Below are positions 13,384-53,244 of a DNA stretch of 64,000 nt, one piece after another (position 1 is the first letter of the stretch; each line of letters begins with the position of its first letter). The stretch lies in contig JAEXGR010000026.1 in assembly GCA_023450745.1 (NCBI GenBank), positions 8,219 to 72,218 on the forward strand, written 5' to 3'. The notes beneath the pieces are model-generated. The model searched no databases. It was given only the letters and a program-made list of their open reading frames with translations, and had not been told where the DNA came from. Both the position numbers and the translations under genes were made by a program. This DNA is from Synergistota bacterium. GTDB taxonomy: Bacteria; Synergistota; Synergistia; Synergistales; Synergistaceae.

Positions 13384-13411
13384 TTTTATTATGGAAGAAG
13401 GATTGTGTTCA

Positions 13412-14692: not shown

Positions 14693-14708
14693 GTTATATA
14701 AATTTCTG

Positions 14709-14757: not shown

Positions 14758-14811
14758 TGGGAGAAATTCAATCAGGTCGCTTCAAGGCGGTTTTAAACCA
14801 AGTTCAAATCT

Positions 14812-14918: not shown

Positions 14919-15136
14919 GAAACTGGGCACATCGACAGCATACTCGTGTCTGCTATACAGATAATTGCTGTGCTTTCTGCAAATAAAAGAAAACAGGTTA
15001 ACGCCGTCGGCGTCAAAAATTTATCTTCGTCCTATATTCACGGTTGGCATACGCGGGTTGTTTTTGTGTGGTGAAATATTAAGATTAAAATATTTAACTA
15101 GAGGCATACACCTTTCCGATGGCATAGTTAAAAACG

Positions 15137-36472: not shown

Positions 36473-37222
36473 TTATTCGTAGTCGACAACGTTGACCCAG
36501 TAGAGCAGAAATTCGCGCTCCTCCGGCTTGCCCTGCGCGAGCCTCTCGGCGGCGCGCAGCGGTATCCATTTCTGCACCTCCGTTTTGGATGCGCCGCTCT
36601 TTTCACAATAAAGGTCGAGGTAGCGGTCGGCCCCGTCGATCTCGCCGGCGAGCCAGAAGAGGAGGTAGGTGCGCGCCGCGTCCGCCGCGGGAACGCCCTG
36701 CGCCGCGTGAGACCAGTCGACGATGTAGTCCCGGCCATCGTCAGTGACGATGAGGTTGCTCGGCGCGAAGTCGCCGTGGCATATTTTGTCTCCGGCGGGC
36801 AGGGATTCCAGGCGCATGTGGAGCTCGTAAAGCGTTGCGGAGGGAAGCTCCGCCGCGAACAGGCTGTCGGCGAGGCGGTCCTTAAGCTTTTCCAGGCCGC
36901 GCGCTTTGGCGGCGTTTATTTTCAGCTGCGCCGCGACAAAACGCTCCAGGTATTCGGCGGCCCTTTCCGGAGCTTCGCCCATGAGGCGGTCCAGGGTTTT
37001 GCCCGCGATGAACTCGGAGACGATCGCCCATTTGCCCTCGGCGTTCGTCACCTCCAGCACCTTCGGCACGGGCAGCCCGCTCTCCTCGACCTTAGCGTGC
37101 GTCGCCGCCTCGGAGAGGATTTTCGCCTTTGAGTGGTCCCGGTCGAATAGTTTTATACATTTGTCCCCGTCGCGGAAGACGGTCTTTGATGTGCGTACCG
37201 CAATAATTTTTTCCAGCTTCAT
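36473..37222 (-). CDS. APH/choline-kinase-like phosphotransferase
   Basis: GLPVPKV, CHGDFAPSN, IVDW. Confidence 0.85.
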   Translation of the reverse strand: MKLEKIIAVRTSKTVFRDGDKCIKLFDRDHSKAKILSEAATHAKVEESGLPVPKVLEVTNAEGKWAIVSEFIAGKTLDRLMGEAPERAAEYLERFVAAQLKINAAKARGLEKLKDRLADSLFAAELPSATLYELHMRLESLPAGDKICHGDFAPSNLIVTDDGRDYIVDWSHAAQGVPAADAARTYLLFWLAGEIDGADRYLDLYCEKSGASKTEVQKWIPLRAAERLAQGKPEEREFLLYWVNVVDYE

Positions 37223-37237
37223 CTTCGTATCCTCCTC

Positions 37238-39853
37238 CTATTTTCCGTAGTAGGCTTTGAGGTACATTTCTTTGATCTCGGAAAGCAGCGGGTAACGCGG
37301 GTTCGCGCCCGTGCACTGGTCGTCGAAGGCCTGCTCCGTCATCTCGTCGAGCGTGGCTAAGAAATCCGCTTCGCCTATGCCGTAATCGCGAATCGTTTTT
37401 TTGATGCCGACGCGCTCTTTCAGCGCGTTGACGGCAGCAATGAGGCTCTCCAGCTTCTCGCCGTCGTCTTTGCCTTTGAGGCCGAGGTAATCCGCGACCT
37501 CCGCGTAGCGCGCCAGCGTATGGGGATAGGCGTACTGCGGGAAGGTTCCCATCTTCGAGGGGACCTCCTCGGCGTTGAAGCGCAGCACATATTCGATCAT
37601 GAGGGCGTTTGCCACGCCGTGCGGCAGGTGGTGGAAGGCGCCGAGCTTGTGGGCCATCGAGTGGCAGACGCCGAGGAAGGCGTTGGCAAAGGCCATGCCC
37701 GCCATCGTCGCGGCGTTGGCCATTTTTTCACGCGCCACGGGGTCGTGGGGGCCGTCGTCGTAGGCGCGCGGCAGGTATTCGAAGATTGACTTGAGCGACC
37801 TCAGCGCCAGCGCGTCGGTGTATTCCGTCGCGAGCATCGCCGCGTAAGCCTCGAGCGCGTGCGTTACGGCGTCGATGCCGGAGGCGGCGGTCAGCCCCTT
37901 GGGGGCGTTCATCATCATGTCGGCGTCCACGATCGCCATATTCGGCATCAGCTCGTAGTCCGCGAGCGGATACTTGACGCCCGTCTTTTCGTCGGTGATG
38001 ACGGCGAAGGGCGTCGCCTCCGAACCGGTGCCGGCGGAGGTCGGCACGGCGATGAAGCAAGCTTTTTCGCCCATCTTCGGGAAGGTGTAGGCGCGCTTTC
38101 TGATATCCATGAAGCGCATCGCCATATCCATGAAATCCGCCTCCGGGTGTTCGTAGAGGACCCACATGATCTTTCCGGCGTCCATCGCGGAGCCGCCGCC
38201 TAAGGCGATGATGCAGTCGGGGCCGAAGGCGCGCATGGCGGCCGCGCCCTCGCGCGCGCAGGCCAGCGTCGGGTCGGGGGCGACGTTGAAGAAGGTGGTG
38301 TGGGCGATGCCCATCTCGTCGAGGCGGTCGGTGATCGCCTTTGTATAGCCGTTGTTATAAAGGAAGGAGTCGGTGACGACGAAGACCCGCTTCTTGCCCA
38401 TGACCTCCTTCAGTTCGCGCAGGGCCACCGGCAGGCAGCCTTTCTTGATGTATAGTTTCTGAGGCGCGCGGAACCAGAGCATATTTTCTCTCCTCTCGGC
38501 AACAGTCTTAATATTCAGCAAATGCTTCACGCCGACGTTTTCAGAGACGGAATTTCCGCCCCAAGAACCGCAGCCCAGGGTCAGCGAGGGCGTGGTCTTG
38601 AAATTGTAAACGTCGCCGATGCCGCCGTGCGAAGAGGGCGTATTTACCAGCACGCGCCCCGTCTTCATGCGGGCCTTGAAATAGTCGAGCTTTTCGCGCT
38701 CCGTTACGGCGTTGAGGTAGACGGAGGAGGTGTGGCCGAAGCCGCCGTCGGCGACGAGGCGCTCCGCCTTCGCCACCGCTTCTTTGAAGTCCGCCGCCCG
38801 GTACATCGCCAGCACGGGCGAGAGCTTTTCGTGCGCGAACTCCTCGCTGATCTCCACGCTCTCGACCTCGCCGATAAGGATTTTCGTCTGTTCGGGGACG
38901 GTCACGCCGGCGAGCGCGGCGATCTTACAGGCGCTTTGTCCTACGATATTGGCGTTGAGCGCGCCGTTGACGATGATCGTCTTGCGCACCTGCTCCGTCT
39001 CCGTCTTGTTGAGGAAGAAGCAGCCGCGGCCGGCGAATTCTTTTTTGACCTTGTCGTATATCGCGTCAAGGGCGATGACCGACTGCTCGGAGGCGCAGAT
39101 CATGCCGTTGTCGAAGGTCTTGGAGTGGATGATGGAGTTTACCGCGAGCTGGATGTCGGCGCTTTCGTCGATGACGGCGGGGGTGTTGCCGGCGCCGACG
39201 CCGAGCGCCGGTTTGCCGCTCGAGTAGGCGGCCTTCACCATGCCGGGGCCGCCCGTCGCGAGGATGAGGTCCGCCTCCCTCATGACGGTGTTCGTCATTT
39301 CAAGCGAGGGCACGTCCACCCAGGCGATGATGTTCTCCGGCGCGCCGGCGGCGACCGCCGCCTCAAGCACGAGGCGCGCGGCCATGATCGTCGAGTTCTT
39401 TGCCCTCGGGTGCGGGCTGATGACGATGCCGTTGCGCGTCTTGAGCGCGAGCAGCGACTTGAAGATCGCCGTCGAAGTGGGGTTCGTCGTGGGGATGACC
39501 GCGGCGATGACGCCGACGGGCTCCGCCACCTTCTGCGTGCCGAAGGCCCTGTCTTCTTCAATGACGCCGCAGGTCTTCACGTCTTTGTAATAATTGTAGA
39601 TATATTCGGAGGCGAAATGGTTCTTGATCACCTTGTCCTCCACAATGCCCATGCCGGTCTCTTCGACGGCGGCCTTCGCGAGCGGGATGCGCGCCTTGTT
39701 GGCGGCCATCGCGGCGGCGAGAAAGATCTTGTCCACCTGTTCCTGCGTGTAGAGGGCGAACTTGCGCTGCGCCTCGCGTACCTCAGCCATCCTCGCGTTA
39801 AGCGACTCAACGCTGTCGACGATTCGCTCTTTTTTTACTTTTTCCTTTGTCAT
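37238..39853 (-). CDS. adhE: Bifunctional acetaldehyde-CoA/alcohol dehydrogenase
   Basis: PTTNPTST, FDNGMICASEQ, GCGSWGGNS, GGGSAMD, HSMAH...PHG, DQCTGANPR. Confidence 0.96.
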   Translation of the reverse strand: MTKEKVKKERIVDSVESLNARMAEVREAQRKFALYTQEQVDKIFLAAAMAANKARIPLAKAAVEETGMGIVEDKVIKNHFASEYIYNYYKDVKTCGVIEEDRAFGTQKVAEPVGVIAAVIPTTNPTSTAIFKSLLALKTRNGIVISPHPRAKNSTIMAARLVLEAAVAAGAPENIIAWVDVPSLEMTNTVMREADLILATGGPGMVKAAYSSGKPALGVGAGNTPAVIDESADIQLAVNSIIHSKTFDNGMICASEQSVIALDAIYDKVKKEFAGRGCFFLNKTETEQVRKTIIVNGALNANIVGQSACKIAALAGVTVPEQTKILIGEVESVEISEEFAHEKLSPVLAMYRAADFKEAVAKAERLVADGGFGHTSSVYLNAVTEREKLDYFKARMKTGRVLVNTPSSHGGIGDVYNFKTTPSLTLGCGSWGGNSVSENVGVKHLLNIKTVAERRENMLWFRAPQKLYIKKGCLPVALRELKEVMGKKRVFVVTDSFLYNNGYTKAITDRLDEMGIAHTTFFNVAPDPTLACAREGAAAMRAFGPDCIIALGGGSAMDAGKIMWVLYEHPEADFMDMAMRFMDIRKRAYTFPKMGEKACFIAVPTSAGTGSEATPFAVITDEKTGVKYPLADYELMPNMAIVDADMMMNAPKGLTAASGIDAVTHALEAYAAMLATEYTDALALRSLKSIFEYLPRAYDDGPHDPVAREKMANAATMAGMAFANAFLGVCHSMAHKLGAFHHLPHGVANALMIEYVLRFNAEEVPSKMGTFPQYAYPHTLARYAEVADYLGLKGKDDGEKLESLIAAVNALKERVGIKKTIRDYGIGEADFLATLDEMTEQAFDDQCTGANPRYPLLSEIKEMYLKAYYGK

Positions 39854-40307
39854 TCTTAACACTCCTGTCCGGTTTTACCCAAATAGAAAGTTACGCGCTC
39901 ATTTGAGAACGTGAAAAAGATCTCAAACTCAATGAGTAAATAATAAAAGCGGAGGCCCCTTTTATGAAGGTATGAAAAGAGAATATCGGTATGCATATAT
40001 CGATATATTGTTATCTATATTGGATCATTACAAATAAGCCCCCGCGTTGTCAAGCAATGCTGATTTTTGCCTGGTTTTGCCTGTATTAATGTTTAGCGTA
40101 TACTTTTAGCGGTGACTCTTATATCCGCCAGCCTAAGGCATTTTGCCGCCTGAAAACGAAAGCGGCAGACGGGCGGCGTAAACTATATAATGGAGGCGTC
40201 ACTGGCCGCCTTTGGCGGCGGTGCAAAAAGCGCCGCCGGGTAGGTAAGACAGCTTGGGAAAAATAACCGTACGTCGCTTAAAATAAAAACAGAGGGAGTG
40301 TTTTACG

Positions 40308-40602: not shown

Positions 40603-42240
40603 GTGAAGATGATCGAGATTACCGGCGTCAGCGTATTTCCCGGAGTGGCGGTGGGGCCGCTTTGTTTCTATCAGCAGGAGCGCCGCCGCCCCGAGCGCGT
40701 GGAGGCGGCTGACCGCGAGGCCGAGCGGGCGCGTTTTGAAAAGGCGCGTCAGGAGGCGGACGGAGAGCTGGAAAGGCTCTACGAGAAGGCGGTTAAAGAG
40801 GCCGGCGAGGCAAGCGCGGCGATCTTCGACATCCACCGCATGATGCTTTCCGACCCCGACTTTGTCGATTCCGTAAGCGGCGTCATCGCCGCGCAGGGCG
40901 TGAGCGCCGAGTACGCTGTGAGCCGCGCGGCGGCGGATTTCGCGCAGATGTTTTCCTCGATGGACGACGCCTATATGAGCGGGCGGGCCGCCGACGTGGC
41001 GGATATCGCCGACCGGGTGATCGCGAAGCTCTCGCCCGGCGGCGCGAAGGGGCCGCAATTTGGCGCGCCCGCCATCCTCGCCGCGCTGGACCTTTCGCCG
41101 AGCGAGACGGTACAGCTGGAAAAGGATAAGGTGCTGGGTTTCGTCACCGCCCGCGGCTCCGAAAACTCCCACACCGCGATCCTCGCGCGCGCGATGGCGA
41201 TTCCCGCGGTGGTAAACGCCGGCGAAAGGCTTCTGCCGGAATACGACGGCAGGCTCGCGGCGCTCGACGGCTTCACGGGAACGCTTTATATTGAGCCGGA
41301 CGCCAAGACGCTCGCGGCGATGGACAAGAAGCGCGCGGAATATATGCAAAAGCGCGCGCGGCTTGCGGAGCTCAAGGGAGAGCCGAACGTTACGCGCGAC
41401 GGCCGCCGCGTCAAGGTCTTCGCCAACGCCGGCAGCATCGCGGACCTCGCCTTTGCCCTCGAAAACGACGCCGAGGGCGTCGGTCTCTTCCGCAGCGAGT
41501 TTATCTATATGGAGGAGAGTTCTTTTCCCAGCGAGGAGCGGCAGTTCGAGATCTACAGGCAGGCCGTGGAGACGATGGGGGCGAAACAGGTCGTCATCAG
41601 GACGCTCGACATCGGCGCCGACAAGCAGGCCCCCTATTTCGGCCTGCCGCGCGAGCAGAATCCGGCGATGGGCATGAGGGCGATACGCGTCTGCCTCACG
41701 CGCCCGGAGATATTCAAAACGCAGCTGCGCGCGCTCTTTCGCGCCTCGGTCTACGGCAATCTGGCGATCATGTTTCCGATGATAACCTCGCCGCTTGAGG
41801 TGGACGAGGCGCTGGCGATCGCCGCTGAGGTAAAAGAGTCGCTGCGGCGGGAAAAGATCCCCTTCCGCGAGGATGTGAGCGCGGGCGTCATGATCGAGAC
41901 CCCCGCCGCGGTGATGATGAGCGCCGAGCTCGCGGCGCGGGCAGATTTTTTCAGCGTCGGCACCAACGACCTCACGCAGTACGCGCTGGCCGCCGACAGA
42001 CAGAACCAGCAGATCGCGCGCTTTTACGACCCGCGCAGCGAGGCGGTGCTGCGGATGATCAAAATCGCCGCCGACAACGCCCACGCCGCCGGCAAGTGGA
42101 TCGGCGTCTGCGGCGAGATGGGGGCCGACACCGAACTGACGGAGAGGCTCCTGCGCATGGGAATCGACGAGATCTCCGTCTCCGCCGGCGCGGTGCTCTC
42201 TCTGCGGCAGAAGATTCGCTCGCTCGACCTCTCCCAATAG
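40603..42240 (+). CDS. ptsI: PTS enzyme I
   Basis: SHTAILAR, GVGLFRSE, RTLDIGADK, MIETP, SVGTNDLTQY, VCGE. Confidence 0.95.
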   Translation: MKMIEITGVSVFPGVAVGPLCFYQQERRRPERVEAADREAERARFEKARQEADGELERLYEKAVKEAGEASAAIFDIHRMMLSDPDFVDSVSGVIAAQGVSAEYAVSRAAADFAQMFSSMDDAYMSGRAADVADIADRVIAKLSPGGAKGPQFGAPAILAALDLSPSETVQLEKDKVLGFVTARGSENSHTAILARAMAIPAVVNAGERLLPEYDGRLAALDGFTGTLYIEPDAKTLAAMDKKRAEYMQKRARLAELKGEPNVTRDGRRVKVFANAGSIADLAFALENDAEGVGLFRSEFIYMEESSFPSEERQFEIYRQAVETMGAKQVVIRTLDIGADKQAPYFGLPREQNPAMGMRAIRVCLTRPEIFKTQLRALFRASVYGNLAIMFPMITSPLEVDEALAIAAEVKESLRREKIPFREDVSAGVMIETPAAVMMSAELAARADFFSVGTNDLTQYALAADRQNQQIARFYDPRSEAVLRMIKIAADNAHAAGKWIGVCGEMGADTELTERLLRMGIDEISVSAGAVLSLRQKIRSLDLSQ

Positions 42241-42345
42241 CGGCGGCCCCGGCCGGTCTAACGTTCAATATTAAATCGGCCGGGGCGGTTTTTGACGTCC
42301 CGGAGAATTGCCCGTTTCCCTATGGCGAGGGCGCGAAGGGGGAGA

Positions 42346-43113
42346 TTAGATCTCTCCCAGCAGCTTGGCGCGGGTTTCGGCCGCCTCTTTCTGCCCCATT
42401 TTTTTCATCGAAAGCGGCGAGATGCCGGTGGCGATGAAGGCGACCTTTTCCGCGAGGTTCAGGACGTGGTCGGAGATTCTTGACAGGTGGCGCAGTATCC
42501 ACATTGAGGCGAAGAGCTTGCCCGTCGTTATATCCTGAGGGTTTGTCGGCACGGAGTTGCGCATCAGCTCTTCGACGGCGCTGTCCCTGATTTGATGCAC
42601 CTTTTTCCGGTGATCGCGCGTCGACGTCACGATGGAGGCGTCCTCTTTCACAAAGGCTGCGAGCGCCTCTTTCAGCATCTTCCTGTCGTGCTCCGCCATT
42701 TCGTTTATCTCGTCCATCATGGGGCAGTCCCTGCCGGGGTCTATCGCCGCGAGTTTTTTGAGGCGCAGCGAGACGTTTACCGCCTGGTCGCCGATGCGCT
42801 CGAGGTCCGTGATGATCTTCATGACGGCGTAGACGAAGCGGAGGTCTTCGCGCATCGGCTGGCGCATCGCGATCGAGTAGAGGCATTCCTGATCTATCTG
42901 TTCCTCCATCTCGTCGATGACGTCGTCTCCGTCGATCACGCTCTGCGCCAGCGGCAGGTCGAAGGCGCGCAGGGCTTTAAGCGCCCCTTCGAGCGCCTCG
43001 GAGGCCAGGTTTCCCATTTTGCAGACCATGTTTATCAGCCTCGCCTTGTCCGAGGCGTAAAGATACGCCTCCAGGTCCTGTTCCTTGGCTTTCTTCTTGT
43101 CGAGCAGCGCCAT
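42346..43113 (-). CDS. phoU: Phosphate signalling protein PhoU
   Basis: D..ID.MEEQID, RQPMREDLR, DLERIGD; second repeat LSRISDH..NLAE. Confidence 0.92.
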   Translation of the reverse strand: MALLDKKKAKEQDLEAYLYASDKARLINMVCKMGNLASEALEGALKALRAFDLPLAQSVIDGDDVIDEMEEQIDQECLYSIAMRQPMREDLRFVYAVMKIITDLERIGDQAVNVSLRLKKLAAIDPGRDCPMMDEINEMAEHDRKMLKEALAAFVKEDASIVTSTRDHRKKVHQIRDSAVEELMRNSVPTNPQDITTGKLFASMWILRHLSRISDHVLNLAEKVAFIATGISPLSMKKMGQKEAAETRAKLLGEI

Positions 43114-43116
43114 CTC

Positions 43117-44733
43117 TTATTCCTCCGTTTCGCGTGCGCAGCCGCACTCTTTTTGTTCCGGCATTCCTATGTCCTCGTCCTCGGCCATTATTTTGGCCAT
43201 GCCGAGGAAGCTCTGCATCAGAGAGACCATCCTGATCGCCCGCGACACCTGCCGGTCGTAGGAGACGTCGCTCAGCTCGCGCCGGAGCTGCCCCGACATC
43301 TGGTTCATCTCTATTTCAAGGCTTTCGGTCCTGTTGATGAGCGCCTTTTCGCCGATCACGAAGGCTCTGAGGCTGGTGCGCATCATCCGGCGGGCGAGCT
43401 TCGCCCACTTTTCCCACCGCTCTTCTCCGAGCTGAGTCTCCAGCACCTTGCGCGCCTCTTCGCCGCTGAGGAAGTCTTTCAGTCCGCCGCAGAGGGTGCG
43501 GGACATGATCCTCATCACGGACATCGTGTGGCTGATCGACGAAAATTTCCGTTTCAGCTCCGGATTGTCGCCCTGTATATGGATTTTGTAGCAGTACTCC
43601 TGGCAGGCGTCGCTGAGTTCGTCGATGTTTTCAGGCAGCGCGCCGAATAATTTCTTGTTTCGCTGCTGCGGTTCGAGCAGCATTTGGAGATAGGCCTCCA
43701 TGTAGTTTGCGAGCCGCGTCATTTCACGCGAGAGGAGAATCACGGAGATAAAGGGGACGGCGAGCATCCCGTCGTCCAGATATTTCGGCTGGCCGAGGTC
43801 GCCCTCGCCGCCGATGCACCTGACCGCAAGCGTGCTGAACTGTCCCGTAAACGGCAGGAAGAGGGCGATGTTGAAGAGGGCGATGAGCACCTGCCCGTAT
43901 ACGAGCTGGTTGGCCACGGAGACCCCGGCCCCGGACATCCGGCATTCCACCCACGGAGCCGCGGCGATAAAGAGCAGCCCGCCGATGAGCTTGTATAGGA
44001 AGGTCGCCAGCCCGAGCCGTTTGGCGCTGAGTTTGCCGCCAAGCCCCGCGAGCACCACCATCGTCGTCGAGCCGATGTGCGCGCCCAGCGCCACCGGCAG
44101 CGCCGACCCCGCCGGCAGCACGCCGGAAGCGGCGAGCGTGATTCCCAGCGCCATGATCGCCGAGCTGCTTTGGAGGAGGCCCGCCCCCATGAAGGAGGCG
44201 AAGCCCACCATCCACGCGTTCGCGGCAAAGGCGGTCACGGTGTTTCGGAATTCCGCGTTCTGAAACATCGGCGCCGTGCCCAGGCCGATCACGAGCATTC
44301 CCATGAAGATAAGCGCCAGGCAGCGTATCAGCCCCGCGCTGAGCCACACCCAACGCCTCTTTGCCTTTGAGAGGAAAAATCCGAGGGCGAAGAGCAACGG
44401 CGCGTAGTCGAAGAGGTTCAGGCTCAGCAGGAAGGAGACGAAGGTGCCGCCGAGGCTCGCCCCCATCATTACGAAGATGGAGCCGGCAAAGGAGAGCATC
44501 CCCGCGTCAACGAAGCCTACGGCGAAGGAGGTGGCGATCGTGCTGCTCTGCGTAATCGCCGAGAGCAGCACTCCGAAACAGAATGACCGGCATTTGCCGG
44601 AGGTGTAGCGTCCGATCTTGTCGCGGAACTCGCCGCCGAAGTTGCTTTTAAAGAAGGCGGAGCTTTCCTGTACTCCGAAGAGGAAGAGCGCAAGTCCACC
44701 CGCGATGTATATTAAATTATAGAGAAAGGTCAA
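43117..44733 (-). CDS. Na+/Pi cotransporter family protein
   Basis: GGLALFLFG, two QSS motifs, GASLGGT and GAHIGST, helical C-terminal domain. TTG start at 44733 after GAGGGTG; the ORF track start is 44766. Confidence 0.85.
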   Translation of the reverse strand: MTFLYNLIYIAGGLALFLFGVQESSAFFKSNFGGEFRDKIGRYTSGKCRSFCFGVLLSAITQSSTIATSFAVGFVDAGMLSFAGSIFVMMGASLGGTFVSFLLSLNLFDYAPLLFALGFFLSKAKRRWVWLSAGLIRCLALIFMGMLVIGLGTAPMFQNAEFRNTVTAFAANAWMVGFASFMGAGLLQSSSAIMALGITLAASGVLPAGSALPVALGAHIGSTTMVVLAGLGGKLSAKRLGLATFLYKLIGGLLFIAAAPWVECRMSGAGVSVANQLVYGQVLIALFNIALFLPFTGQFSTLAVRCIGGEGDLGQPKYLDDGMLAVPFISVILLSREMTRLANYMEAYLQMLLEPQQRNKKLFGALPENIDELSDACQEYCYKIHIQGDNPELKRKFSSISHTMSVMRIMSRTLCGGLKDFLSGEEARKVLETQLGEERWEKWAKLARRMMRTSLRAFVIGEKALINRTESLEIEMNQMSGQLRRELSDVSYDRQVSRAIRMVSLMQSFLGMAKIMAEDEDIGMPEQKECGCARETEE

Positions 44734-44839
44734 CTTATCACCCTCTTCATTTTTTGTATATTCCATCTAAAGCGGCGTCTCTTTAAAAATGACGCCGCTT
44801 TAGCGAGTTCTTTGCGACCGGGCCGCGCCGGCGTTTAGC

Positions 44840-46357
44840 CTATATTTTTTCTTCCCTTTTCCGTGCCGCGTTTTTTCCCTTGAGCGCCCGGAAGAGCGGC
44901 GTGCAGAGAGAAAGCGCGGAGAGTCCCAGCAGCACCGCGGAGAGCGGGCGCGTGAAGAACATCGCGGGGCCGTCCATCACGAGCGTCATTTGCAGATTCA
45001 TCTCGATGAGCGTTCCCAGCACGAGCCCCAAAACGATGGGCGACGAGGGGTAGTGAAACTTGTTCAGCAGCCATCCGGCCACGCCGAAGACGACGCAGAC
45101 GCCGACGTCGAAGGTCGACGAGCGTACGGCGAAGCTGCCGATGATCGAAAAGGCGAAGATCATCGGGTAGAGGATGCTCTTGGGCACCATCGTCACCTTG
45201 ATCCAAACACGCGAGCCGAGCCAGCCGACGAGCAGCAGCACGAGGTTGGCGACGAAGAGGCTCGCAAAGAGCGTATAGACGATCTCCGGGTGCTTGCTGA
45301 AGAGTTCCGGCCCCGGGCGCAGTTCGTGAATCATGAGCGCGCCGATGAGCACCGCCGTGGAGGCGCTGCCCGGAATGCCCAGCGTGAGGAGCGGCACCAG
45401 GGCTCCGCCCACGGACGAGCTGTTGGAGGCTTCGGCCGCCGTGACGCCTTCGAGGCTGCCCTTGCCGAACATCTCGGGGGTCTTGCTGAGCCGTTTTTCG
45501 ACGTCATAGGCGATGAACGAAGCGATTGTGCCGCCGGCGCCGGGGAAGATTCCGATGATGGTGCCCAAGACGCCGGAGCGGATCATGCCCCATTTCAGGC
45601 TTAGGTATGTCTTCATGGTCGGCCACGAGGAGAGCCCGTCGTCGGAGACGCTGTCAAAGGCCTTGAAGTTGCCCTCTTCAATGTTGGCAAACACTTCGCT
45701 CAGGGCAAAGAGCCCGATGAGCGCGGGGATAAAGGAGAAGCCGTCGTAGAGCCTGATGACGTCGAAGGTATATCGTGAGACGCCGCTTACGTGGTCAAGC
45801 CCCACCGTGTTGAGCAGCAGGCCGAGAAGCACCGCGATGAGCGCTTCGAGCCATTTGCCGCCGCCGAGCGAGGCGACCGTCGTCAGCCCGAGGACGGCCA
45901 GCGCGAAGTACTCCGCGGGCCAGAACTTCAGCGCGAAGTTCGCCAGCGGCGCGGAGAAGCAGATCAGGATGATGATGCCGACGAAGCCGCCGACGACCGA
46001 GGCGACGAGCGAGACGCCCAGCGCGTCGCCGGCGCGCCCGCTCTTGGCGAGCGGATAACCGTCGAAGGCCGTGACGACGGCGGAGGGCGTGCCCGGCGTA
46101 TTTATCGTGACCGCGGTGATCGAGCCGCCGTAGTTTGAGGCGAGATATATCGCGCAAAGCATTACCAGCCCCATCGTCGGACTCATGCCGAAGGTGAAGG
46201 GAAGCAGTATCGCGACCGCCATCGAGGGCGATACTCCGGGCATGGCGCCGCCGAGGATGCCGACGATCACGCCGGCCACGATCGCGGCCAAGGGCCCGAA
46301 CCCGGCGAGATTGCGAAGCCCCGCTAAAAGGGCGCTCAACATTTCCATAACCGTCAC
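44840..46357 (-). CDS. tctA: Tripartite tricarboxylate transporter large subunit
   Basis: GAMPG, YGGSITAVTINTPGTPS, DGYPLA, AEASNSS, LTLGIPGS. Confidence 0.94.
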   Translation of the reverse strand: MTVMEMLSALLAGLRNLAGFGPLAAIVAGVIVGILGGAMPGVSPSMAVAILLPFTFGMSPTMGLVMLCAIYLASNYGGSITAVTINTPGTPSAVVTAFDGYPLAKSGRAGDALGVSLVASVVGGFVGIIILICFSAPLANFALKFWPAEYFALAVLGLTTVASLGGGKWLEALIAVLLGLLLNTVGLDHVSGVSRYTFDVIRLYDGFSFIPALIGLFALSEVFANIEEGNFKAFDSVSDDGLSSWPTMKTYLSLKWGMIRSGVLGTIIGIFPGAGGTIASFIAYDVEKRLSKTPEMFGKGSLEGVTAAEASNSSSVGGALVPLLTLGIPGSASTAVLIGALMIHELRPGPELFSKHPEIVYTLFASLFVANLVLLLVGWLGSRVWIKVTMVPKSILYPMIFAFSIIGSFAVRSSTFDVGVCVVFGVAGWLLNKFHYPSSPIVLGLVLGTLIEMNLQMTLVMDGPAMFFTRPLSAVLLGLSALSLCTPLFRALKGKNAARKREEKI

Positions 46358-46363
46358 GCTCCC

Positions 46364-46924
46364 TTACTTAAAGAGACTGCCGACCGGCAGCCCGAGCAGC
46401 AAAAGCTTGTTGAATACCAGCCAGGTGACGGCGATCCACACGCAGACGGTTCCCGCCATCAGCGGAACGCGGCGCTCTCCCATGAGGAGCATGAGCGCGG
46501 TGATCATCGCGCCGGTGCAGATGAAAAAACCCAGCCTGTCGAACAGGGCGATCGCGGCGAAGACGACGGCGACGGTCAGGGCGACTTTGCCGAGGCGTCC
46601 GTACTTGACCGGCTGATAATCTTTTTGATTCCATATCTTTATAAACTGCAGCGCCGAACAAACGAACAGCGAGCCGCCCCAGAGAAGGGGAACGAGCCGC
46701 GGGTCGCTTTCCGCCTCCGCCGCGCCCTCGAAGCCGAATGAAAGAAGGATAAACGCGGCCGAGAATTCGATAATTAAAAATGCCGCCAGCAGTGAATCAA
46801 GCCTGTCGGACTTGCCCATCGCCGCGGATACGCGGGCGGCGAAGGCGGCGGTCAGGCCGCAAGCTATACAGAGTATCAGCGCTCCTGCCGGCTTTCCGAG
46901 GTAGAGCGCGGCTTCCTGTATCAT
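46364..46924 (-). CDS. tctB: TTT small membrane subunit
   Basis: Hydrophobic, PRLVP, LGF...F.KLL.LGLP.G; lies between tctC and tctA. Confidence 0.8.
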   Translation of the reverse strand: MIQEAALYLGKPAGALILCIACGLTAAFAARVSAAMGKSDRLDSLLAAFLIIEFSAAFILLSFGFEGAAEAESDPRLVPLLWGGSLFVCSALQFIKIWNQKDYQPVKYGRLGKVALTVAVVFAAIALFDRLGFFICTGAMITALMLLMGERRVPLMAGTVCVWIAVTWLVFNKLLLLGLPVGSLFK

Positions 46925-46996
46925 AAAATCACTCTCTTTCGTCTCTCCGCCCCTTTTTGAAACACAAGGGGCGGAGCATAGATCGTCGGTTCCCGA

Positions 46997-47941
46997 TTAC
47001 TTTTTGGTAAAGTGCTGCGCGGTCTCGATGTCGCCCTTGACCTGCTTGTTGAACTTGTCGCGGCCCCAGTCGCAGACCTCGATTCCGTCGCGAACGAGGA
47101 AACTGCGCCACTCGGGGTCCTTCGCGACCTTCCGGTTCAGCTCTTCCCACCACTTGTAGGCCTCTTCGGGCGCGCCCTTTTTGATGGCGAAGCCACGCCA
47201 CATTATTTCGTTGTCCAGCCCCTTATACCCAAGCTCCTTGAAGGTGGGGACGTCGGGCAGCTGCGGCAGGCGCTTCACGGCGGAGACGGCCACGATCTTG
47301 TATCCCTTGCGGCCCTGCGTGTCCGCCGGGTTTCCGACGTAGGCGGCGTTCTGTCCCGAGAGGGTGCCCATCATCGCTTCGGGGCCGCTCTTGTAGGGCA
47401 GCCACTTGGCCTTCATGCCGGCCGTTTCCCACACCTTCTGCGCGAAAAGGTGGTCGTTGCCGCCGGTGGCGGGGCCGCCCCATATCTGTTTGCCGCCCTG
47501 TTTTTTCGCCTCTTCGACGAGCTTGGCGAAGGTCGTATAGCCGCCGTTCTCGGAGGTGATGATGCATTCCGGGTCTCTCATCAGCATCGCGACCCATTCA
47601 AAGCCCCACACCATTTCATCGACGCTCTTCTTGGCGGAGACGACCTTGTCCACGACCGACGTCGTCGCGGCAAAGACGGTGTAGCCGTCGGCGGGCTGCT
47701 CGAGCACGGCGCCGATCGCCACAAGCCCGCCGGCGCCGGCGGTGTTTTCGACCACGAACGTGGCGTCGGTATATTTTTTCGCGATGGAGACGAACTTCCG
47801 GCTCGTGACGTCCATCAGTCCGCCGGGGGCCACGTAGTTGACGATCTTTATCGGTTTGTCAGGATATGCCGCGAGAGCCGGGACGGTAGAAGCCGCGATG
47901 ACTGCCGCCGTTACCAGTGAAGTGATCAAACTTTTACGCAT
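46997..47941 (-). CDS. tctC: TTT substrate-binding protein (Bug/TctC)
   Basis: YPDKPI, PGG..D, VEN.AGAGG, PADGYT, LPDVPTFKELG, WRG. Confidence 0.93.
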   Translation of the reverse strand: MRKSLITSLVTAAVIAASTVPALAAYPDKPIKIVNYVAPGGLMDVTSRKFVSIAKKYTDATFVVENTAGAGGLVAIGAVLEQPADGYTVFAATTSVVDKVVSAKKSVDEMVWGFEWVAMLMRDPECIITSENGGYTTFAKLVEEAKKQGGKQIWGGPATGGNDHLFAQKVWETAGMKAKWLPYKSGPEAMMGTLSGQNAAYVGNPADTQGRKGYKIVAVSAVKRLPQLPDVPTFKELGYKGLDNEIMWRGFAIKKGAPEEAYKWWEELNRKVAKDPEWRSFLVRDGIEVCDWGRDKFNKQVKGDIETAQHFTKK

Positions 47942-47972
47942 TGCAAAATTCCTCCTTTGTTTGTGTTGGCGC

Positions 47973-48896
47973 TTATGCCTGGCCTTTAAAGAGTTTATAA
48001 AGCAGCCCGTGACGGAGTCCTCTGTCGCTGACCGTGAATTCTGAGACGCCGCAGAGCTCCATGATCGCCTCGATGATGCAGGCGCCGGCGAGGATGACGT
48101 CGGCGCGCTTCGGCTGGAGCCCCACGATCTCTTTGCGCTCGTCGAGCGTCTTCGCGGCGTAGCTGGCGACCTGGGCGCGCACGTCCGCGAGCGTCAGCTT
48201 CGAGCCCTGGATCACGTCGGGGTCGTAGACTTTCATCTGGTGCTTCACGGAGGCGATGCTTGTGACGTTGCCGCCCATGCCGACGAGGAACTTGGCTCCG
48301 GCGCTCACGCCGCCCTCCGCGAGCTCCCGGCGCACCTGGGCGCGCGCTTCGGCGAGTTTTTCCGGGGCGACCGGCATCTCTGCGAGATAGCTCTCCGTGA
48401 TTCGGATTCCTCCGATATTGAGGCTGAATTTACGTTTCATGACCCCGGCTTCTCCGAAGACGAATTCGGTGCTGCCGCCGCCGGTGTCGAACGAGACGAG
48501 GTTGGCCTCCGCGGCGCCGGGAATGCCGGAGACCACCGCGATATACGAAAGCTGCGCCTCTTCTTCGCCGGGGATGACGCGCGGGTCGATTCCCGTGAGC
48601 TCCCTGACTCTCGCCCTGAATTCGCCGCTGTTTTTTGCCGTGCGCAGGGCCATCGTCCCCACGATCACTATTTCGTCCGCCGCCGCGCCGCGCGCCTCGC
48701 GCACGAATTCGTCCACGGCCTGCGCGTTTCTCTCGAGCGCCTCGGGGGAGATGGTCCCCGTGTCTTTTAGGCCTTCGCCGAGCTTCGCGATGTTGTTCGC
48801 GTCCTTCAGAACGGTGAACGAGCCGTCGCGCGCGGCGCTTTCGGCCAGACAGAATTTGATGGAGTTGGTGCCGATGTCGATGACCGCCTTTTTCAT
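47973..48896 (-). CDS. Ppx/GppA family phosphatase (short, 307 aa)
   Basis: DIGTNSIK, GEEEAQLSY, DTGGGSTE, RADVILAG, SDRGLRHG. Confidence 0.92.
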   Translation of the reverse strand: MKKAVIDIGTNSIKFCLAESAARDGSFTVLKDANNIAKLGEGLKDTGTISPEALERNAQAVDEFVREARGAAADEIVIVGTMALRTAKNSGEFRARVRELTGIDPRVIPGEEEAQLSYIAVVSGIPGAAEANLVSFDTGGGSTEFVFGEAGVMKRKFSLNIGGIRITESYLAEMPVAPEKLAEARAQVRRELAEGGVSAGAKFLVGMGGNVTSIASVKHQMKVYDPDVIQGSKLTLADVRAQVASYAAKTLDERKEIVGLQPKRADVILAGACIIEAIMELCGVSEFTVSDRGLRHGLLYKLFKGQA

Positions 48897-49483
48897 TATT
48901 TGATCATCCCCACTGATTTCTTCATCGCCTGGATGTAATTGACGTTGGGCGCCCCTTCAAGTCCGAGCTTTTTGACGACGGAGATGACGAGCTCCGGGTC
49001 CTCGTGCTCTACGCAGATCGTGCGCCACGGCCGGCCGTTGAAGGAGGTCTCCGCGATCTCGGCCGTCGTTCCCTCTATCTTGTAGATGTCGCGGCTCTTT
49101 TTCACTTCGACGAGTTCGAGGTCGGCGCACGGACGGATCACTTCGTCGAGGAACTGTTCGTACGTGTATTCCGCGCGTTTGAACTCCGGCGCTTCCGCCT
49201 TGAATATCTTAAAGAGGCCGGCAAGCGTCTCCGCCGCAATGGGGAAGCCCGTCTTCAGCACCGGCATCCATTGTTCGAGCTTGTCGCCGTTTACGTTCTG
49301 CAGCGACTTGACGTCGACGACGTCAAAGCGGATCTTGATGTTCTCGTCGCTCTTCTTTGAGAGGATATAAAGCTCCTCCGTCTTTTTGCTGCCGTCCATT
49401 CCCAACGCGCGAACCGCCTCCTCGCATTTGCCGAACGAGCCGGTTCCAAAGGTTCTCCATTCCCAGCGTGCGATGATTCCCAT
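48896..49483 (-). CDS. CYTH/triphosphate-tunnel-like protein, RWEWR variant (copy 1)
   Basis: RWEWR, ELY, IKIR, DVK, VKKSRDIY, CVE, NY in CYTH order; its stop overlaps the ppx start. The fold call is inference. Confidence 0.7.
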   Translation of the reverse strand: MGIIARWEWRTFGTGSFGKCEEAVRALGMDGSKKTEELYILSKKSDENIKIRFDVVDVKSLQNVNGDKLEQWMPVLKTGFPIAAETLAGLFKIFKAEAPEFKRAEYTYEQFLDEVIRPCADLELVEVKKSRDIYKIEGTTAEIAETSFNGRPWRTICVEHEDPELVISVVKKLGLEGAPNVNYIQAMKKSVGMIK

Positions 49484-49516
49484 GCATAAAAACCCCTTTC
49501 GTTTTCGTTGCTTCAC

Positions 49517-49565
49517 AAAATAAAAAATGCGGAACAAGCCACCATCAACCGGCGTTGTTCCGCAT
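49517..49565 (-). terminator. Intrinsic terminator T2 in the leader of the CYTH-ppx-tct operon
   Basis: atgcggaacaa / ttgttccgcat stem, then a U-rich tract on the minus strand. Confidence 0.75.
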
Positions 49566-49573
49566 CGCAATAT

Positions 49574-49617
49574 AAAAAAATACAGAACAACTCTCCTGCT
49601 GAAAGTTATTCTGTATT
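49574..49617 (-). terminator. Intrinsic terminator T1 in the same leader
   Basis: aatacagaacaact / agttattctgtatt stem, then a U-run on the minus strand. Confidence 0.7.
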
Positions 49618-49642
49618 GTGCATATCCCGCTTACTGCTGTGA

Positions 49643-49671
49643 ATGATATAACTAGCGGTTCGATATGTCAA
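49643..49671 (-). promoter_or_regulatory. Sigma70-type promoter
   Basis: Minus-strand TTGACA (49671-49666)-17 bp-TATCAT (49648-49643). Confidence 0.7.
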
Positions 49672-50229
49672 TTAGATTTTTAAAAAGTGTTTCAAAAGCG
49701 TTACATAGTTTGCCGTTGCTTTACCGTCAAGGCGGCAGCCGCGGACGAAGTATTCCACCTGTTCCGGCTTTTCGCTCTCGACGCAGAGCGTCCACTTTGT
49801 GCGTCCCGCGAAAGAGGCCGTCCCGGCCTCGATTATCGTATCTTCGATCATGTAGATGTCGCGCTCCTTCACGACCTCTATCATGGCGAGAGGCCCTCCC
49901 GCGGGAAATGATTCGCGGCCCAGGGCGCGGGGAAACGGCGTGCCGATGAAGCCGGTTATCGTGGTGGCGTCAGCGGCGTCCGGCGGAAACGGCGATTTGA
50001 AAGCCGGCCGCCACAGCTCCGTCCCAAAGGGCGAAACGCCGACGCGGATCTTGACGTCGAGGACGCCGGCGCGTATTTTGAGGTTGGCCTCCGTAAGCCT
50101 CGAGAGGACATATAAATCCGTGCCCCGCTTGCGGTTGGCGCGGCGCAGCTTTTGAAAAACAGGCGCTATGGAAAGAAAGGGGGCGTCTGAGAATATCCGC
50201 CATTCCCACCGGGATGCCGCCGTCCCCAT
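49672..50229 (-). CDS. CYTH-like protein, RWEWR variant (copy 2)
   Basis: RWEWR, DLY, LKIR, DVK, VVKERDIY, CVE, NY; paralogue of 48896-49483. Confidence 0.7.
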   Translation of the reverse strand: MGTAASRWEWRIFSDAPFLSIAPVFQKLRRANRKRGTDLYVLSRLTEANLKIRAGVLDVKIRVGVSPFGTELWRPAFKSPFPPDAADATTITGFIGTPFPRALGRESFPAGGPLAMIEVVKERDIYMIEDTIIEAGTASFAGRTKWTLCVESEKPEQVEYFVRGCRLDGKATANYVTLLKHFLKI

Positions 50230-50234
50230 TTCCG

Positions 50235-51842
50235 CTATGCGATCGCCTTCGCCACTATCCGCCGCGCCTCTTCGTTGATCGCGGCAAGATGCTCTTCGCT
50301 CTTAAAGCTCTCGGCGTAGATCTTATAGATGTCCTCCGTGCCGGAGGGGCGGGCGGCGAACCAGCCGTTTCCCGTCGCGACCTTGAGTCCGTCGATCGGC
50401 GCGCCGTTGCCGGGGGCGGCGGTGAGCTTCGCCGTGATCTTTTCGCCCGCCAGCGTCTTTGCCGTGACGTCGGCGGGAGAGAGCTTTTTGAGCTTCCCTT
50501 TCTCTTCGCGCGAGGCGGGGGCGTCTTTGCGCGAATAGTGCGGCGTGCCGAAGCGCGCCGTCATCGCGCGGTAGTGCTCGGAAGGGGATTTGCCGGTGAC
50601 CGCCGTGATCTCCGCCGCGAGCAGGCTCATGATGAAGCCGTCCTTGTCGGTGCTCCAGGCCGTTCCGTCCTTGCGCAGGAAGGAGGCGCCGGCGCTCTCC
50701 TCGCCGCCGAAGGCGAGCTCGCCCGCAAGCAGCCCGTCGACGAACCATTTGAAGCCGACGGGGACCTCGTAGAGCCTGCGGCCAAGGGCTGATGCCACGC
50801 GGTCGATCATCGAGCTGGAGACGAGCGTCTTGCCCGCCATCGACGCTGCGCGCCACAGCGGGCGGTGCGTGAAGAGGTACTCGATCGCGACGGCGAGGTA
50901 GGCGTTCGGCTGCATGAGGCCGTCCTTTGTGACGATGCCGTGGCGGTCGTAATCGGGGTCGTTTCCGAACGCGATATCGTATTTATCCTTGAGCGCGACG
51001 AGCTTTGCCATCGCCCACGGCGAGGAGCAGTCCATGCGCACCTTGCCGTCATGGTCGAGCGGCATGAAGGAGAAGGTCGGATCGACGGCTTTGTTTGTAA
51101 CCTCAATGTCCAGGCCGTACCGTTCCGCGATCGGTTCCCAGAAGAAGATTCCCGAGCCGCCGAGCGGGTCGGCGCCTATCTTCAGGCCGGAGGCCGCGAT
51201 CGCCGCCATATCGATGATCTCGCCGAGCTCCGACGTATATTGCGAGACATAATCGATGAAGCGCACGTTGGCGCGCGAGAGCGCCTCTTTAAAACCGACG
51301 CGTTTTACGCCGTTCAGTTTGTTTTCGATCAGTTCGTTGGCGCGCGCTTCGATCAGCTTCGTGATCTCCGTCCCCGCGGGGCCGCCGCTTGGGGGATTAT
51401 ATTTGAAACCGCCGTCCTGAGGGGGGTTGTGCGACGGCGTGATGACGACGCCGTCGGCCACGGGGGCGTCCTTCTGTCTGTTCCAGCCGAGTATCGCGTG
51501 CGAGATCACCGGGGTCGGCGTGTAGGTGAAATTTTTCTGCAGGCGCAGCTCGACGCCGCCCGCCGCGAAGACCTCGACCGCCGTGCGCAGCGCCGCCTCC
51601 GAGAGCGCGTGGGTGTCCATCCCCATGAAGAGAGGCCCCGTGATCCGCCGCGTTTGCCGGTATTCGCAGATCGCCTGCGCGATGGCCGCGATATGGTCGT
51701 CGTTGAAGCTGTCCTTTACCGAGGAGCCGCGGTGGCCGGAGGTGCCAAAGGATACTCGCTGTCCCTTGTCGGTCATATCCGGGCGCTCGGTATAGTAGGC
51801 TGTCATCAGCCTGGGAATATTTATTTCTGGACGTTCAGCCAT
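50235..51842 (-). CDS. pgm: Phosphoglucomutase (E. coli Pgm type)
   Basis: [46 protein letters not shown]. Confidence 0.95.
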
Positions 51843-51954
51843 AGCTGTTCCCCTCCTCTTGATATTAAGAAGCCGTGTTTTCACCCGTTATTATATAACA
51901 TCGGCGAAGACACGGCTCTGGTGTATTGGAGGGTGTTTTATTGAAAAGACGCTT

Positions 51955-53244
51955 TTATGAGTGGATATGTTCCACCATTTTCACGAAAAGCTCGACGGCG
52001 GGAGCGAGCACGCCCTCGTCAAAATCAAAGGCCTTGTCGTGAAAGCTGGCGGTGAAGTCGGCGCCGAGGCCGATATAACTGCCGACGCCGCCGTTTTTCT
52101 GGACGCGGCGCAGCATCTCCGAGGCGTCGTCGCTGCCGCCGACGCTGCCGACGTCATGGAACTCCGTAAACCAGGGGATCGTTCTCGCGCATTGCATGGC
52201 GATCTCTATCGCCTTATCGTCCGAGGCGCCCGAAGAGGATTTCCCGATCAGGACGACCTCGCATGCCACCTCATAGGCCTCCGCCGCTCCTTTGACGACG
52301 GCGAGCATCTTTTTTTCGCCATATTCGGCGACGGTGTCGTTCTCCCCGCGCACCTCGACCTCCATGTAGGCGTCCGCCGCTATCGTGTTGCGCGAGCTCC
52401 CCGCGTGCATGACGCCGACGTTTTGATGGAACTCGCCCTGGCAGTGCGGCGGGATCGTGTGTATACCCAGCGCCGCGACGCAGGAGGCGAGCAGCGCGTT
52501 TTTGCCGTCGTTGGGATTGCCGCAGGGGTGCGCGGCCTTGCCTTTATAGATGACGTTGTACCTGCGGCTGTCGAGGAAATCCTTCGCGCCGCCGATGATG
52601 CCATGCGAGGGCAGCGGACGGCCGTCCAGCTGCGTGAGGCCGACGTGGCCGGCGAAGAAGTAGTCGACGTCGTCCAGGCAGCCGCGTTCTACGATGCCGC
52701 GCGCGCCGCCGCCGCCCTCCTCCGCGGGCTGAAAGATCAGCTTGATCCGGCCGCGCAGAGAATCCTTTATCTTTATCAGCTCCTCCGCGACGACCATTCC
52801 GATGGCGGTATGGCCGTCGTGGCCGCAGGCGTGGCACGAGCCTTCGTTTATCGAGACGTAACCTTCTTTTACCGGCCTGTGATCGGGGGAATCCGTCTCG
52901 GAAAAGGGGAGCGCGTCAATGTCGAAGCGGAAGGCCGTTACCGGCCCTTCTCTGCCGGTGTCGATGATTCCCATCACGCCGGGCAGCCCGCACATTTTTT
53001 CCACCAGCGCCGGCTCCGCGCCCTGCGCGACGGCGCGCCGCTTCTCCTCGGCGATCTTTTCTTCCGAGGGGTACTGGAACTGCATTCCTTTTACGGAAAG
53101 GTCCTCGCCCATAACGACGGGAATGCCGAGCGTCATCAGGTGTCTTGTCACGATCGAGGCGGTGCGGTATTCTTTCCACATCGATTCGGCGTGTCTGTGA
53201 AAATCCCGGCGCAGCTCTATCAGTCTCTTTTCCATCTCTTCCAT
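51955..53244 (-). CDS. M20 amidohydrolase (AbgA-like)
   Basis: RRDFHRHAE, RFDIDAL, HACGHDGH, FQPAEEG, GSDDA. Confidence 0.9.
   Translation of the reverse strand: MEEMEKRLIELRRDFHRHAESMWKEYRTASIVTRHLMTLGIPVVMGEDLSVKGMQFQYPSEEKIAEEKRRAVAQGAEPALVEKMCGLPGVMGIIDTGREGPVTAFRFDIDALPFSETDSPDHRPVKEGYVSINEGSCHACGHDGHTAIGMVVAEELIKIKDSLRGRIKLIFQPAEEGGGGARGIVERGCLDDVDYFFAGHVGLTQLDGRPLPSHGIIGGAKDFLDSRRYNVIYKGKAAHPCGNPNDGKNALLASCVAALGIHTIPPHCQGEFHQNVGVMHAGSSRNTIAADAYMEVEVRGENDTVAEYGEKKMLAVVKGAAEAYEVACEVVLIGKSSSGASDDKAIEIAMQCARTIPWFTEFHDVGSVGGSDDASEMLRRVQKNGGVGSYIGLGADFTASFHDKAFDFDEGVLAPAVELFVKMVEHIHS

Follow-up and report, generated by a model that had tools for sequence, protein, structure and literature searches.

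Gene content and transcription of the locus

We analysed a 64,000-nucleotide stretch of a Synergistota bacterium genome (Synergistaceae; GenBank assembly GCA_023450745.1, contig JAEXGR010000026.1, forward-strand positions 8,219 to 72,218), hereafter the window, with focus on a gene cluster at 42346..50229 in which two proteins related to CYTH/triphosphate tunnel metalloenzymes (TTM) and a Ppx/GppA phosphatase adjoin a tripartite tricarboxylate transporter (TTT; TctC, TctB and TctA), a Na/Pi-cotransporter family protein and PhoU. A sequence-only reading of this stretch had described eight co-oriented genes, with a one-base overlap between the first CYTH-like gene and ppx and close spacing from ppx to tctA, and had proposed that this TTT imports a phosphate polyanion which the two enzyme types degrade. 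All eight open reading frames (ORFs) do lie there, on the minus strand between ptsI and pgm, and the overlap and spacing hold, with intergenic gaps of 31, 72 and 6 nt from ppx to tctA followed by 73 and 3 nt up to phoU. The locus has a GC content of ~60%, similar to that of its flanks, and its nearest relatives carry Synergistaceae labels. Its features, in the direction of transcription, are:

49672..50229, minus strand: distal RxExR tunnel protein, 185 aa, a paralogue encoded 5 nt after pgm and ahead of the operon promoter
49643..49671, minus strand: sigma-70-type promoter, TTGACA-17-TATCAT, 11/12
49576..49630, minus strand: conserved leader element (motif, hairpin at 49617-49579, U-run), candidate attenuator or cis-regulatory RNA
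49516..49565, minus strand: second leader hairpin (49565-49527) and U-run, intrinsic-terminator-like, preceding the first ribosome-binding site
48896..49483, minus strand: RxExR triphosphate-tunnel (CYTH-fold) protein, ATG start, 195 aa, no signal peptide
47973..48896, minus strand: single-domain Ppx/GppA phosphatase, 307 aa, PF02541 (E 5.6e-57), no signal peptide
46997..47941, minus strand: TctC solute-binding protein of a distinct clade, PF03401 above cut-off, signal peptide, pincer-loop Phe replaced by Val
46364..46924, minus strand: TctB small membrane subunit, PF07331 above the Pfam cut-off
44840..46357, minus strand: TctA large membrane subunit, PF01970 (E 3.5e-157)
44767..44803, minus strand: intergenic hairpin without U-run in the tctA/napi gap, z -6.1
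43117..44766, minus strand: Na/Pi-cotransporter family protein (napi) with a C-terminal PhoU-like region, PF02690
42346..43113, minus strand: PhoU, TIGR02135 at 162.9 bits versus a cut-off of 130.25
42246..42286, no strand assigned: hairpin between the convergent ptsI and phoU, likely 3' boundary

The promoter (49671-49643) directly follows the stop codon of the distal tunnel gene, and a similar one occupies the equivalent position in relatives. Because it lies between the two tunnel genes, the transcript likely comprises seven genes (tunnel protein, ppx, tctC, tctB, tctA, napi and phoU), so that the eight-gene set stands for seven members of one operon and fails for the distal tunnel gene, upstream of the operon promoter. 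The hairpin at 44767-44803, which had been thought to uncouple napi and phoU, folds well but lacks a following U-run and was not among the terminators called. In addition, tctA and napi overlap in eight related loci (L010, L012, L016, L018, L020, L022, L024 and L026), which makes a conserved break before napi-phoU unlikely, and a stability or processing element is more likely here than a terminator. The true start of the Na/Pi protein, as read from the ORF, may be the TTG at 44733.

A divergent tunnel-fold protein and its phosphatase partner

The two RWEWR-bearing proteins, ~35% identical to each other, gave neither a Pfam match nor an NCBIfam CYTH match at E<=0.1, PF01928 and its gathering threshold included. 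Sequence-level assignment also failed with the alignment profile, which yielded only chance matches against Protein Data Bank (PDB) sequences, and with hhalign, which matched the family to neither the NeuTTM-like nor the SVELK families described below; the nearest named Atlas cluster (0.85) is a lead only, and one homologue is labelled 'CYTH domain-containing protein' in UniRef. Structure comparison, not sequence models, bears out the CYTH identity of both proteins at the level of fold. The AlphaFold model of the tunnel protein (pLDDT 95.6, from a 60-sequence alignment) contains the eight-stranded triphosphate tunnel, its best Foldseek matches are thiamine triphosphatase and plant TTMs (E 4e-7 to 1e-6), and it aligns with E. 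coli YgiF at a VIA-align Z of 13.0 (rmsd 4.1, 167 aligned).

Residues R6, E8, R10, Y39, K50, R52, K59, P81, K129, R131, E142 and E159 are invariant in 108 tunnel sequences. ExExK is the hallmark of CYTH/TTM proteins and HFxxxxExExK that of class IV adenylyl cyclases (PMC8233210). Neither occurs in the tunnel family, where the N-terminal motif reads R6-x-E8-x-R10 in 108/108 sequences. The basic residues K50, R52, K59, K129 and R131, on strands 3, 4 and 6 of the model's secondary structure, are present in 108/108 and agree with the set described for SaTTM, compared with which Arg takes the place of the first ExExK Glu and the last-strand ExE has one unconserved Glu (PMC8233210). For that ExE, which serves two metal sites, the register inferred from strand positions leaves E159 as the sole invariant residue, with A or C at 157 and E at 161 in 71/108. 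The simplest reading of the model, in this register, is that one metal site is kept and that an Arg replaces the water-activating one. The tunnel fold and basic residues are thus common to YgiF, NeuTTM, SaTTM, AtTTM3 and thiamine triphosphatase; unlike these, the family has RxExR for ExExK, one invariant last-strand Glu and no PF01928 match, on which grounds we filed it as a divergent TTM subfamily. The distal paralogue retains all invariant residues.

Exopolyphosphatases generally stop at pyrophosphate (PPi) or tripolyphosphate (PPPi). Triphosphatases of the tunnel fold likewise yield PPi and are inhibited by it, and AtTTM1/2 also lack ExExK, AtTTM2 having pyrophosphatase (PPase) activity (PMC8233210). 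By analogy, and because both enzyme types stop at these products, the tunnel protein may clear the PPi/PPPi end product; alternatively, it may have a pure binding or channelling role or open the ring of trimetaphosphate. A predicted complex between the tunnel protein and Ppx scored 0.15 against a mark of 0.32. The locus is patchy, since the tunnel gene occurs in 30/201 genomes of the phylum and in 0/3 other genomes of the same genus; just 4 of these 30 Synergistota genomes had a second copy. Cultured carriers are Pyramidobacter sp. YE332, Pyramidobacter sp. SM-530-WT-4B and Anaeroselena agilis.

The Ppx protein keeps the ASKHA motifs (DxGxxS, the catalytic Glu, DxGGGSTE and a C-terminal Arg/GLR), and its best PDB match (E 1.8e-40) is a single-domain Ppx/GppA of the 2J4R/1T6C type, with the catalytic Glu and DxGGGSTE in register. 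Unlike those relatives, with which it shares the catalytic motifs, it is paired or N-terminally fused with a tunnel domain, lies outside a ppk operon and scores below the TIGR03706 cut-off (243.7 versus 307).

A distinct clade of TctC solute-binding proteins

All three transporter subunits scored above Pfam cut-offs (PF01970, PF07331 and PF03401 for TctA, TctB and TctC), and TctC adopts a Bug-type fold (Foldseek E 1e-25 to 2DVZ; TM 0.83 to TphC) and is <=26% identical to the solved TctCs that Foldseek retrieved. The three-subunit architecture, Pfam families, fold and GGxxD loop are those of the TTT family (TC 2.A.80; BugD 2F5X, BugE 2DVZ, Bug27 2QPQ, TphC 7NDR, MatC 6HKE, AdpC 5OEI and the Vibrio alginate TTT), so by composition and fold the transporter is a TTT, whose ligand class would be new. 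In the TTT pincer motif, P-F-x-A-G-G-x-x-D (PMC5812351), G-G-x-x-D is invariant here too, and P-F is replaced by Y-V in this protein and by Tyr/His plus Val/Thr/Leu across the clade, with Phe in 0/73 extracted motifs. The pincer Phe of AdpC docks the carbon chain of the ligand (PMC5812351). Its loss fits a ligand devoid of a carbon chain, but this evidence is weak, since the position varies in unrelated TctCs as well. TctC has a signal peptide and neither the tunnel protein nor Ppx has one, and we therefore place hydrolysis after import.

Conserved linkage of the transporter to short-chain polyphosphatases

Neighbourhoods were first anchored on the tunnel gene, in 73 GTDB loci carrying it. The operon order recurs in 33 of them, all within loci L001-L037 (Synergistota, Bacillota, Cloacimonadota and others), and 33/73 likewise encode a TctC of the clade; ppx is present in 69/73 (of the four loci lacking it, three break off no more than 250 nt from the tunnel gene), and napi and phoU in 16/73 each. 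An in-frame tunnel-Ppx fusion occurs in 23/73 loci. Both comparative checks proposed with the sequence-only reading thus came out in its favour: the linkage is conserved across Synergistota, Bacillota and Cloacimonadota, and CYTH-Ppx fusions exist. Longer tunnel homologues numbered 1247 among 7999 candidates scored, with a Ppx-GppA Pfam match in 117 of the 120 listed.

Anchoring on TctC, a more independent test, covered the best 80 of 558 confirmed metagenome loci, near-identical strains included. A tunnel-protein, Ppx or DHH gene accompanies tctC in 60 of these 80 loci. Of the 80, 28 have <1.5 kb upstream of tctC; among the remaining 52, a tunnel-protein or polyphosphatase gene is present in 50. 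L146 and L150, the two exceptions, fall outside a 64-row TctC clade (SH-aLRT 99) in a quick tree built from 72 TctCs after dereplication at 85% identity, a tree whose long branches meet near the root. By comparison, 0/5 other TTT loci of the source genome carry any of these genes. The RxExR protein is the constant partner (49/80), and the second enzyme is Ppx/GppA in 38/80, a yeast-PPX1-like DHH/DHHA2 protein in 12/80 or a NeuTTM-like canonical CYTH protein in 6/80, never two together. The TctC tree places one DHH locus, L095, within the Ppx loci, which suggests repeated enzyme swaps.

The replacing hydrolases point to a common chemistry. The DHH proteins bear a GNExxDLDS motif, find their best PDB match in the exopolyphosphatase 2qb6 (91.6 bits versus <=50.5 for pyrophosphatases) and miss the cut-off of every family II PPase model (5 scanned); PRUNE1, a PPX1 homologue, hydrolyses P3/P4 and not long chains (PMC7788287). 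The canonical CYTH partners match only NE1496, a specific tripolyphosphatase (PMC3440374). What the three swapping families would share, on sequence grounds, is action on the inorganic phosphoanhydride bond of short chains, which argues for short inorganic polyphosphate (polyP) as the substrate. With linkage conserved across phyla, fusions, and unrelated polyphosphatases in the place of Ppx, the proposal of a TTT for a phosphate polyanion gains ground at the sequence level; from its list of substrates, PPi, PPPi and short polyP are favoured, and inositol phosphates find no support among the neighbours scanned.

The same neighbourhoods speak to two other ligand classes. Import of an organic di- or triphosphate (nucleoside triphosphates, thiamine triphosphate, (p)ppGpp or inositol pyrophosphate), with its phosphates then stripped, would draw on TTM and Ppx/GppA families that include nucleotide- and thiamine triphosphate-active members, and adenylate kinase genes, of two types, do stand directly after tctA in two separate lineages (L031:13918-14550 and L145; L104:3358-4131 and L123:5256-6029). 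However, the characterised relatives of the DHH and NeuTTM-like partners prefer inorganic P3/P4, and no nucleoside, thiamine or inositol catabolic gene was recurrent among the neighbours scanned (58 + 65, chosen subsets), so that we consider this alternative unlikely. The kinases themselves could reflect use of imported triphosphate or coincidence; a search for papers on adenylate kinases that use triphosphate brought up none of relevance.

Less probable still is that the TTT carries an ordinary carboxylate, a phosphonocarboxylate or a metal-citrate complex, the enzymes managing the cell's own polyP and the linkage being regulatory or historical. Such a function would accord with the TTT ligands known so far, with the retained GGxxD loop and with the wide occurrence of the tunnel-Ppx pair without any transporter. 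Against it, the linkage holds over a TctC clade of 36-85% identity, through three or more independent replacements of the enzyme and two types of Pi transporter, and no carboxylate catabolic gene was recurrent among the same neighbour subsets. Unlike in known TTT loci, the neighbours here are phosphoanhydride hydrolases and Pi genes instead of carboxylate catabolism.

The Pi modules are interchangeable as well: among the best 80 TctC loci, Na/Pi proteins were counted in 18, PiT in 10, DUF47 in 9, PhoU in 11 and OprO/P porins in 3, these last adding up with L032 and L037 to five related loci with PF07396 porins. This recurrence bears on whether PPi and PPPi are scavenged for energy, Ppx trimming the substrate to PPi and the tunnel protein binding or channelling it so that PPi drives a membrane ion-pumping pyrophosphatase. 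The source genome does encode a membrane PPase (PF03030, E 2e-275), neither a soluble family I PPase nor a DHHA2 protein was found in it (93% complete), and the tunnel protein lacks one metal ligand. Nevertheless, Pi transporters, PhoU/DUF47 and phosphate porins as recurrent neighbours are a signature of phosphorus acquisition, and no membrane PPase gene was found among the neighbours scanned; energy scavenging thus ranks slightly below import of organic phosphates and slightly above that of carboxylates.

In several loci, signal-peptide-bearing proteins with weak CYTH-like features are encoded beside the TTT (L088-L094, L117:300-1151, L127:9906-10784, L126:4126-5259 and L143:3724-5046). They score 0.92 in Atlas to a cluster with 12% PF01928 and reach an hhalign probability of 78% to the second CYTH-like family, and are candidates for extracytoplasmic cutting of long polyP. 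Together with the co-occurrence of PhoU and Pi transporters, they would suit a TTT that imports orthophosphate, or a TctC that senses phosphate, after extracellular cleavage. This we hold to be the most improbable alternative, as the operon already has a dedicated Pi transporter and the constant enzyme partners, without signal peptide, need a cytoplasmic substrate.

Several related loci depart from this layout. In L037, DUF47 and PiT stand in place of napi-phoU, next to an OprO/P porin. L032:9001-14389 combines the tunnel gene, canonical CYTH genes and an OprO/P porin with a DASS carrier that replaces the TTT, a candidate second importer family for the same substrate. The Pyramidobacter-labelled L003 (8625-8860 and 11678-16122) has two tandem leader motifs and a duplicated tctB-tctA pair, and TctC-TctB fusion ORFs of ~500-525 aa occur in L037:10531-12063, L113, L126, L146 and L150. 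Finally, 24 of loci L036-L073 carry, with no transporter, a second CYTH-like family, unannotated, with an SVELK motif and weak PF01928 matches, as in L052:10530-11402 and in a triple fusion at L059:8992-11412; these soil-type tunnel-Ppx plus SVELK loci are possibly an intracellular polyP-recycling unit.

A conserved leader element precedes the operon

The leader, which runs from the promoter to the first gene, contains two hairpins with a U-run after each (z -6.8 for the leader as a whole). The motif ACAAY-RCAGAAUA opens the first one (13-17 bp, 49617-49579), and a counterpart of the second hairpin, with its U-run, follows the motif in most relatives; RCAGAAYA was found within 400 nt upstream in 38/118 loci examined, a few of them by chance. 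In 23 chosen Synergistota and Clostridia-labelled sequences, a 13-pair helix was 90.8% paired, against 0/500 shuffles and 40-62% in slid controls, numbers inflated by the relatedness of the sequences and by hand specification of the helix on a trimmed alignment of these same sequences. The helix shows G-C/G-U and U-A/U-G alternation. RNAalifold predicted no pairs on the long leader alignment, and none of the seven Rfam matches in 41000-53000 reached its gathering score.

Across 151 Synergistota genomes, a covariance model of the element returned 16 strong matches, each immediately ahead of the tunnel gene and many at loci used for training, along with three weak unrelated ones. In 151 genomes of the class of the Clostridia-labelled locus, the training locus was the sole strong match and 0/19 weaker matches inspected precede a phosphate gene; a motif pattern search in 401 genomes of that class gave two unrelated matches versus one for the control. 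With matches almost confined to this operon, a regulon-wide element finds no support; a leader peptide was rejected, as its start codon is not conserved. The leader is absent from most other copies of the operon, including those searched with DHH or NeuTTM partners. That the invariant 5' arm overlaps the terminator-like stem suggests that the leader works by attenuation. A partial copy (E 0.052) lies directly upstream of an unlinked Na/Pi cotransporter gene in L164 (G128:C3:20965-20980), where the motif is followed by a hairpin that could mask the ribosome-binding site.

A Pho-box-like pattern, defined post hoc, matches in the source genome (G000) only the pstS-like promoter and the operon promoter, the latter match overlapping coding sequence; across 12 genomes from a different genus, matches numbered 6, versus 10 for the reversed control. 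Upstream of the pstS-like gene, a repeat of 11-bp period with CTGTTAC twice (G000:C62:72950) is a candidate Synergistota Pho box. Literature searches for phosphate-transporter riboswitches returned nothing describing this system.

Other genes of the source genome and the window

As read from ORFs, the source genome also encodes a separate ppk/ppx-like pair (G000:C13:83840-86838) and a pst-like operon on contig C62, whose PhoU makes that of the locus the second genome copy. Both units, and the lack of any PF00245 alkaline phosphatase match in this 93% complete genome, are counted in favour of the import reading. A stand-alone Ppx without tunnel partner (G000:C13:9529-10440) is 48% identical to that of the operon. 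Elsewhere in the window, a glycine/betaine reductase selenoprotein B (PF07355) at 56654-57964, beside GrdE-like and BCCT genes, is split into two ORFs, as expected from the sequence for an in-frame selenocysteine codon. An AdhE-like gene followed by an APH-family phosphotransferase (PF01636) occupies 36473-39862, and the 5146-15916 segment, of 45-52% GC, encodes several proteins with type IV prepilin-like N-termini and a Schlafen/AlbA_2 protein, with a Fic gene nearby.

Discussion

Comparative genomics and structure prediction, the sole evidence gathered here, make it fairly probable that the operon imports tripolyphosphate or short polyP intact and hydrolyses it in the cytoplasm. It would serve high-affinity uptake and breakdown of tripolyphosphate, short polyP and perhaps PPi as a phosphorus source. 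The substrate would first pass the outer membrane; some relatives would use an OprO/P-type porin for this, and in some, secreted tunnel-fold proteins would pre-cut it. TctC would then bind it and TctAB import it by ion symport, as befits their family, and a cytoplasmic exo-acting hydrolase (Ppx/GppA here, PPX1-like DHH or NeuTTM-like proteins elsewhere) would strip terminal Pi. In the least secure step, the RxExR tunnel protein may complement this hydrolase by binding or hydrolysing the PPi/PPPi end product. The Na/Pi protein and PhoU, or PiT and DUF47, would balance the released Pi, and attenuation at the leader, the structure of which is supported, would gate expression.

Several points weigh against this interpretation. 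The TTT ligands described in PMC5812351 and PMC13390454 are carboxylates or related organic anions, those listed in the available text of PMC13390454 being carboxylates and uronates only. The TctC pocket shows no cluster of basic residues, TTT pockets being usually slightly negative (PMC5812351), and loss of the pincer Phe is not specific to the clade, as one paralogue in the same genome also lacks it. The query of the TctC-anchored scan was built from operon-linked TctCs. On the enzymatic side, the tunnel protein lacks the hallmark ExExK motif and might not act as a hydrolase; the Ppx/GppA name alone does not fix activity, since one of two mycobacterial homologues is devoid of exopolyphosphatase activity (PMC3411833); E. 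coli Ppx acts poorly on PPPi (PMC3440374); and TTM and Ppx enzymes cut nucleotides too. Lastly, a TTT was found in 0/36 of the distant loci L038-L073 (mostly Acidobacteriota, Chloroflexia and Actinomycetes), from which we infer that the two enzymes also serve some function independent of transport. The more ambitious proposal that this TctC clade is a dedicated importer of intact polyP, combined with a new one-metal tunnel enzyme clearing PPi and with a leader RNA responsive to phosphate or pyrophosphate, is therefore put forward as a tentative one, and we rather doubt that all of its parts hold.

Uptake of intact short polyP would share its phosphate-scavenging logic with the OprO/OprP porins and Pst system of the Pseudomonas Pho regulon, PF07396 porins being present in related loci. 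In Pseudomonas, as far as is known, the outer-membrane step alone is specific for condensed phosphate, and cleavage is periplasmic; here, in contrast, the hydrolases are predicted to be cytoplasmic and an inner-membrane binding-protein transporter is added. OprO has been described as pyrophosphate-specific (PMC9769906). Intact import followed by cytosolic degradation has likewise been proposed for Haloferax volcanii growing on exogenous polyP, for which, unlike here, the available text names no transporter (PMC13318637). Compared with known TTTs, the replaced pincer Pro-Phe sets this one apart, and no phosphate ligand appears in the portions of PMC5812351 or PMC13390454 at hand. Full-text searches for TTT and polyphosphate, CYTH-exopolyphosphatase fusions and polyphosphate uptake, with most subscription journals outside their coverage, returned no such system, and the gene cluster is apparently undescribed.

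If the operon does import condensed phosphate, the TTT family would extend from organic acids to inorganic polyanions, and a role would be assigned to an unannotated TTM subfamily with >1000 database homologues that is invisible to Pfam. Tripolyphosphatases, whose physiological role has been questioned (PMC3440374), would gain a physiological source of substrate, and these genes would serve as markers for condensed-phosphate recycling in anaerobic communities. A 2026 paper describes the mechanism of polyP access and import into cells as unknown (PMC13318637). By naming one soluble binding protein and two soluble enzymes, the locus makes this question testable by standard assays, and it would, if our interpretation is right, answer how prokaryotes take up exogenous polyP.

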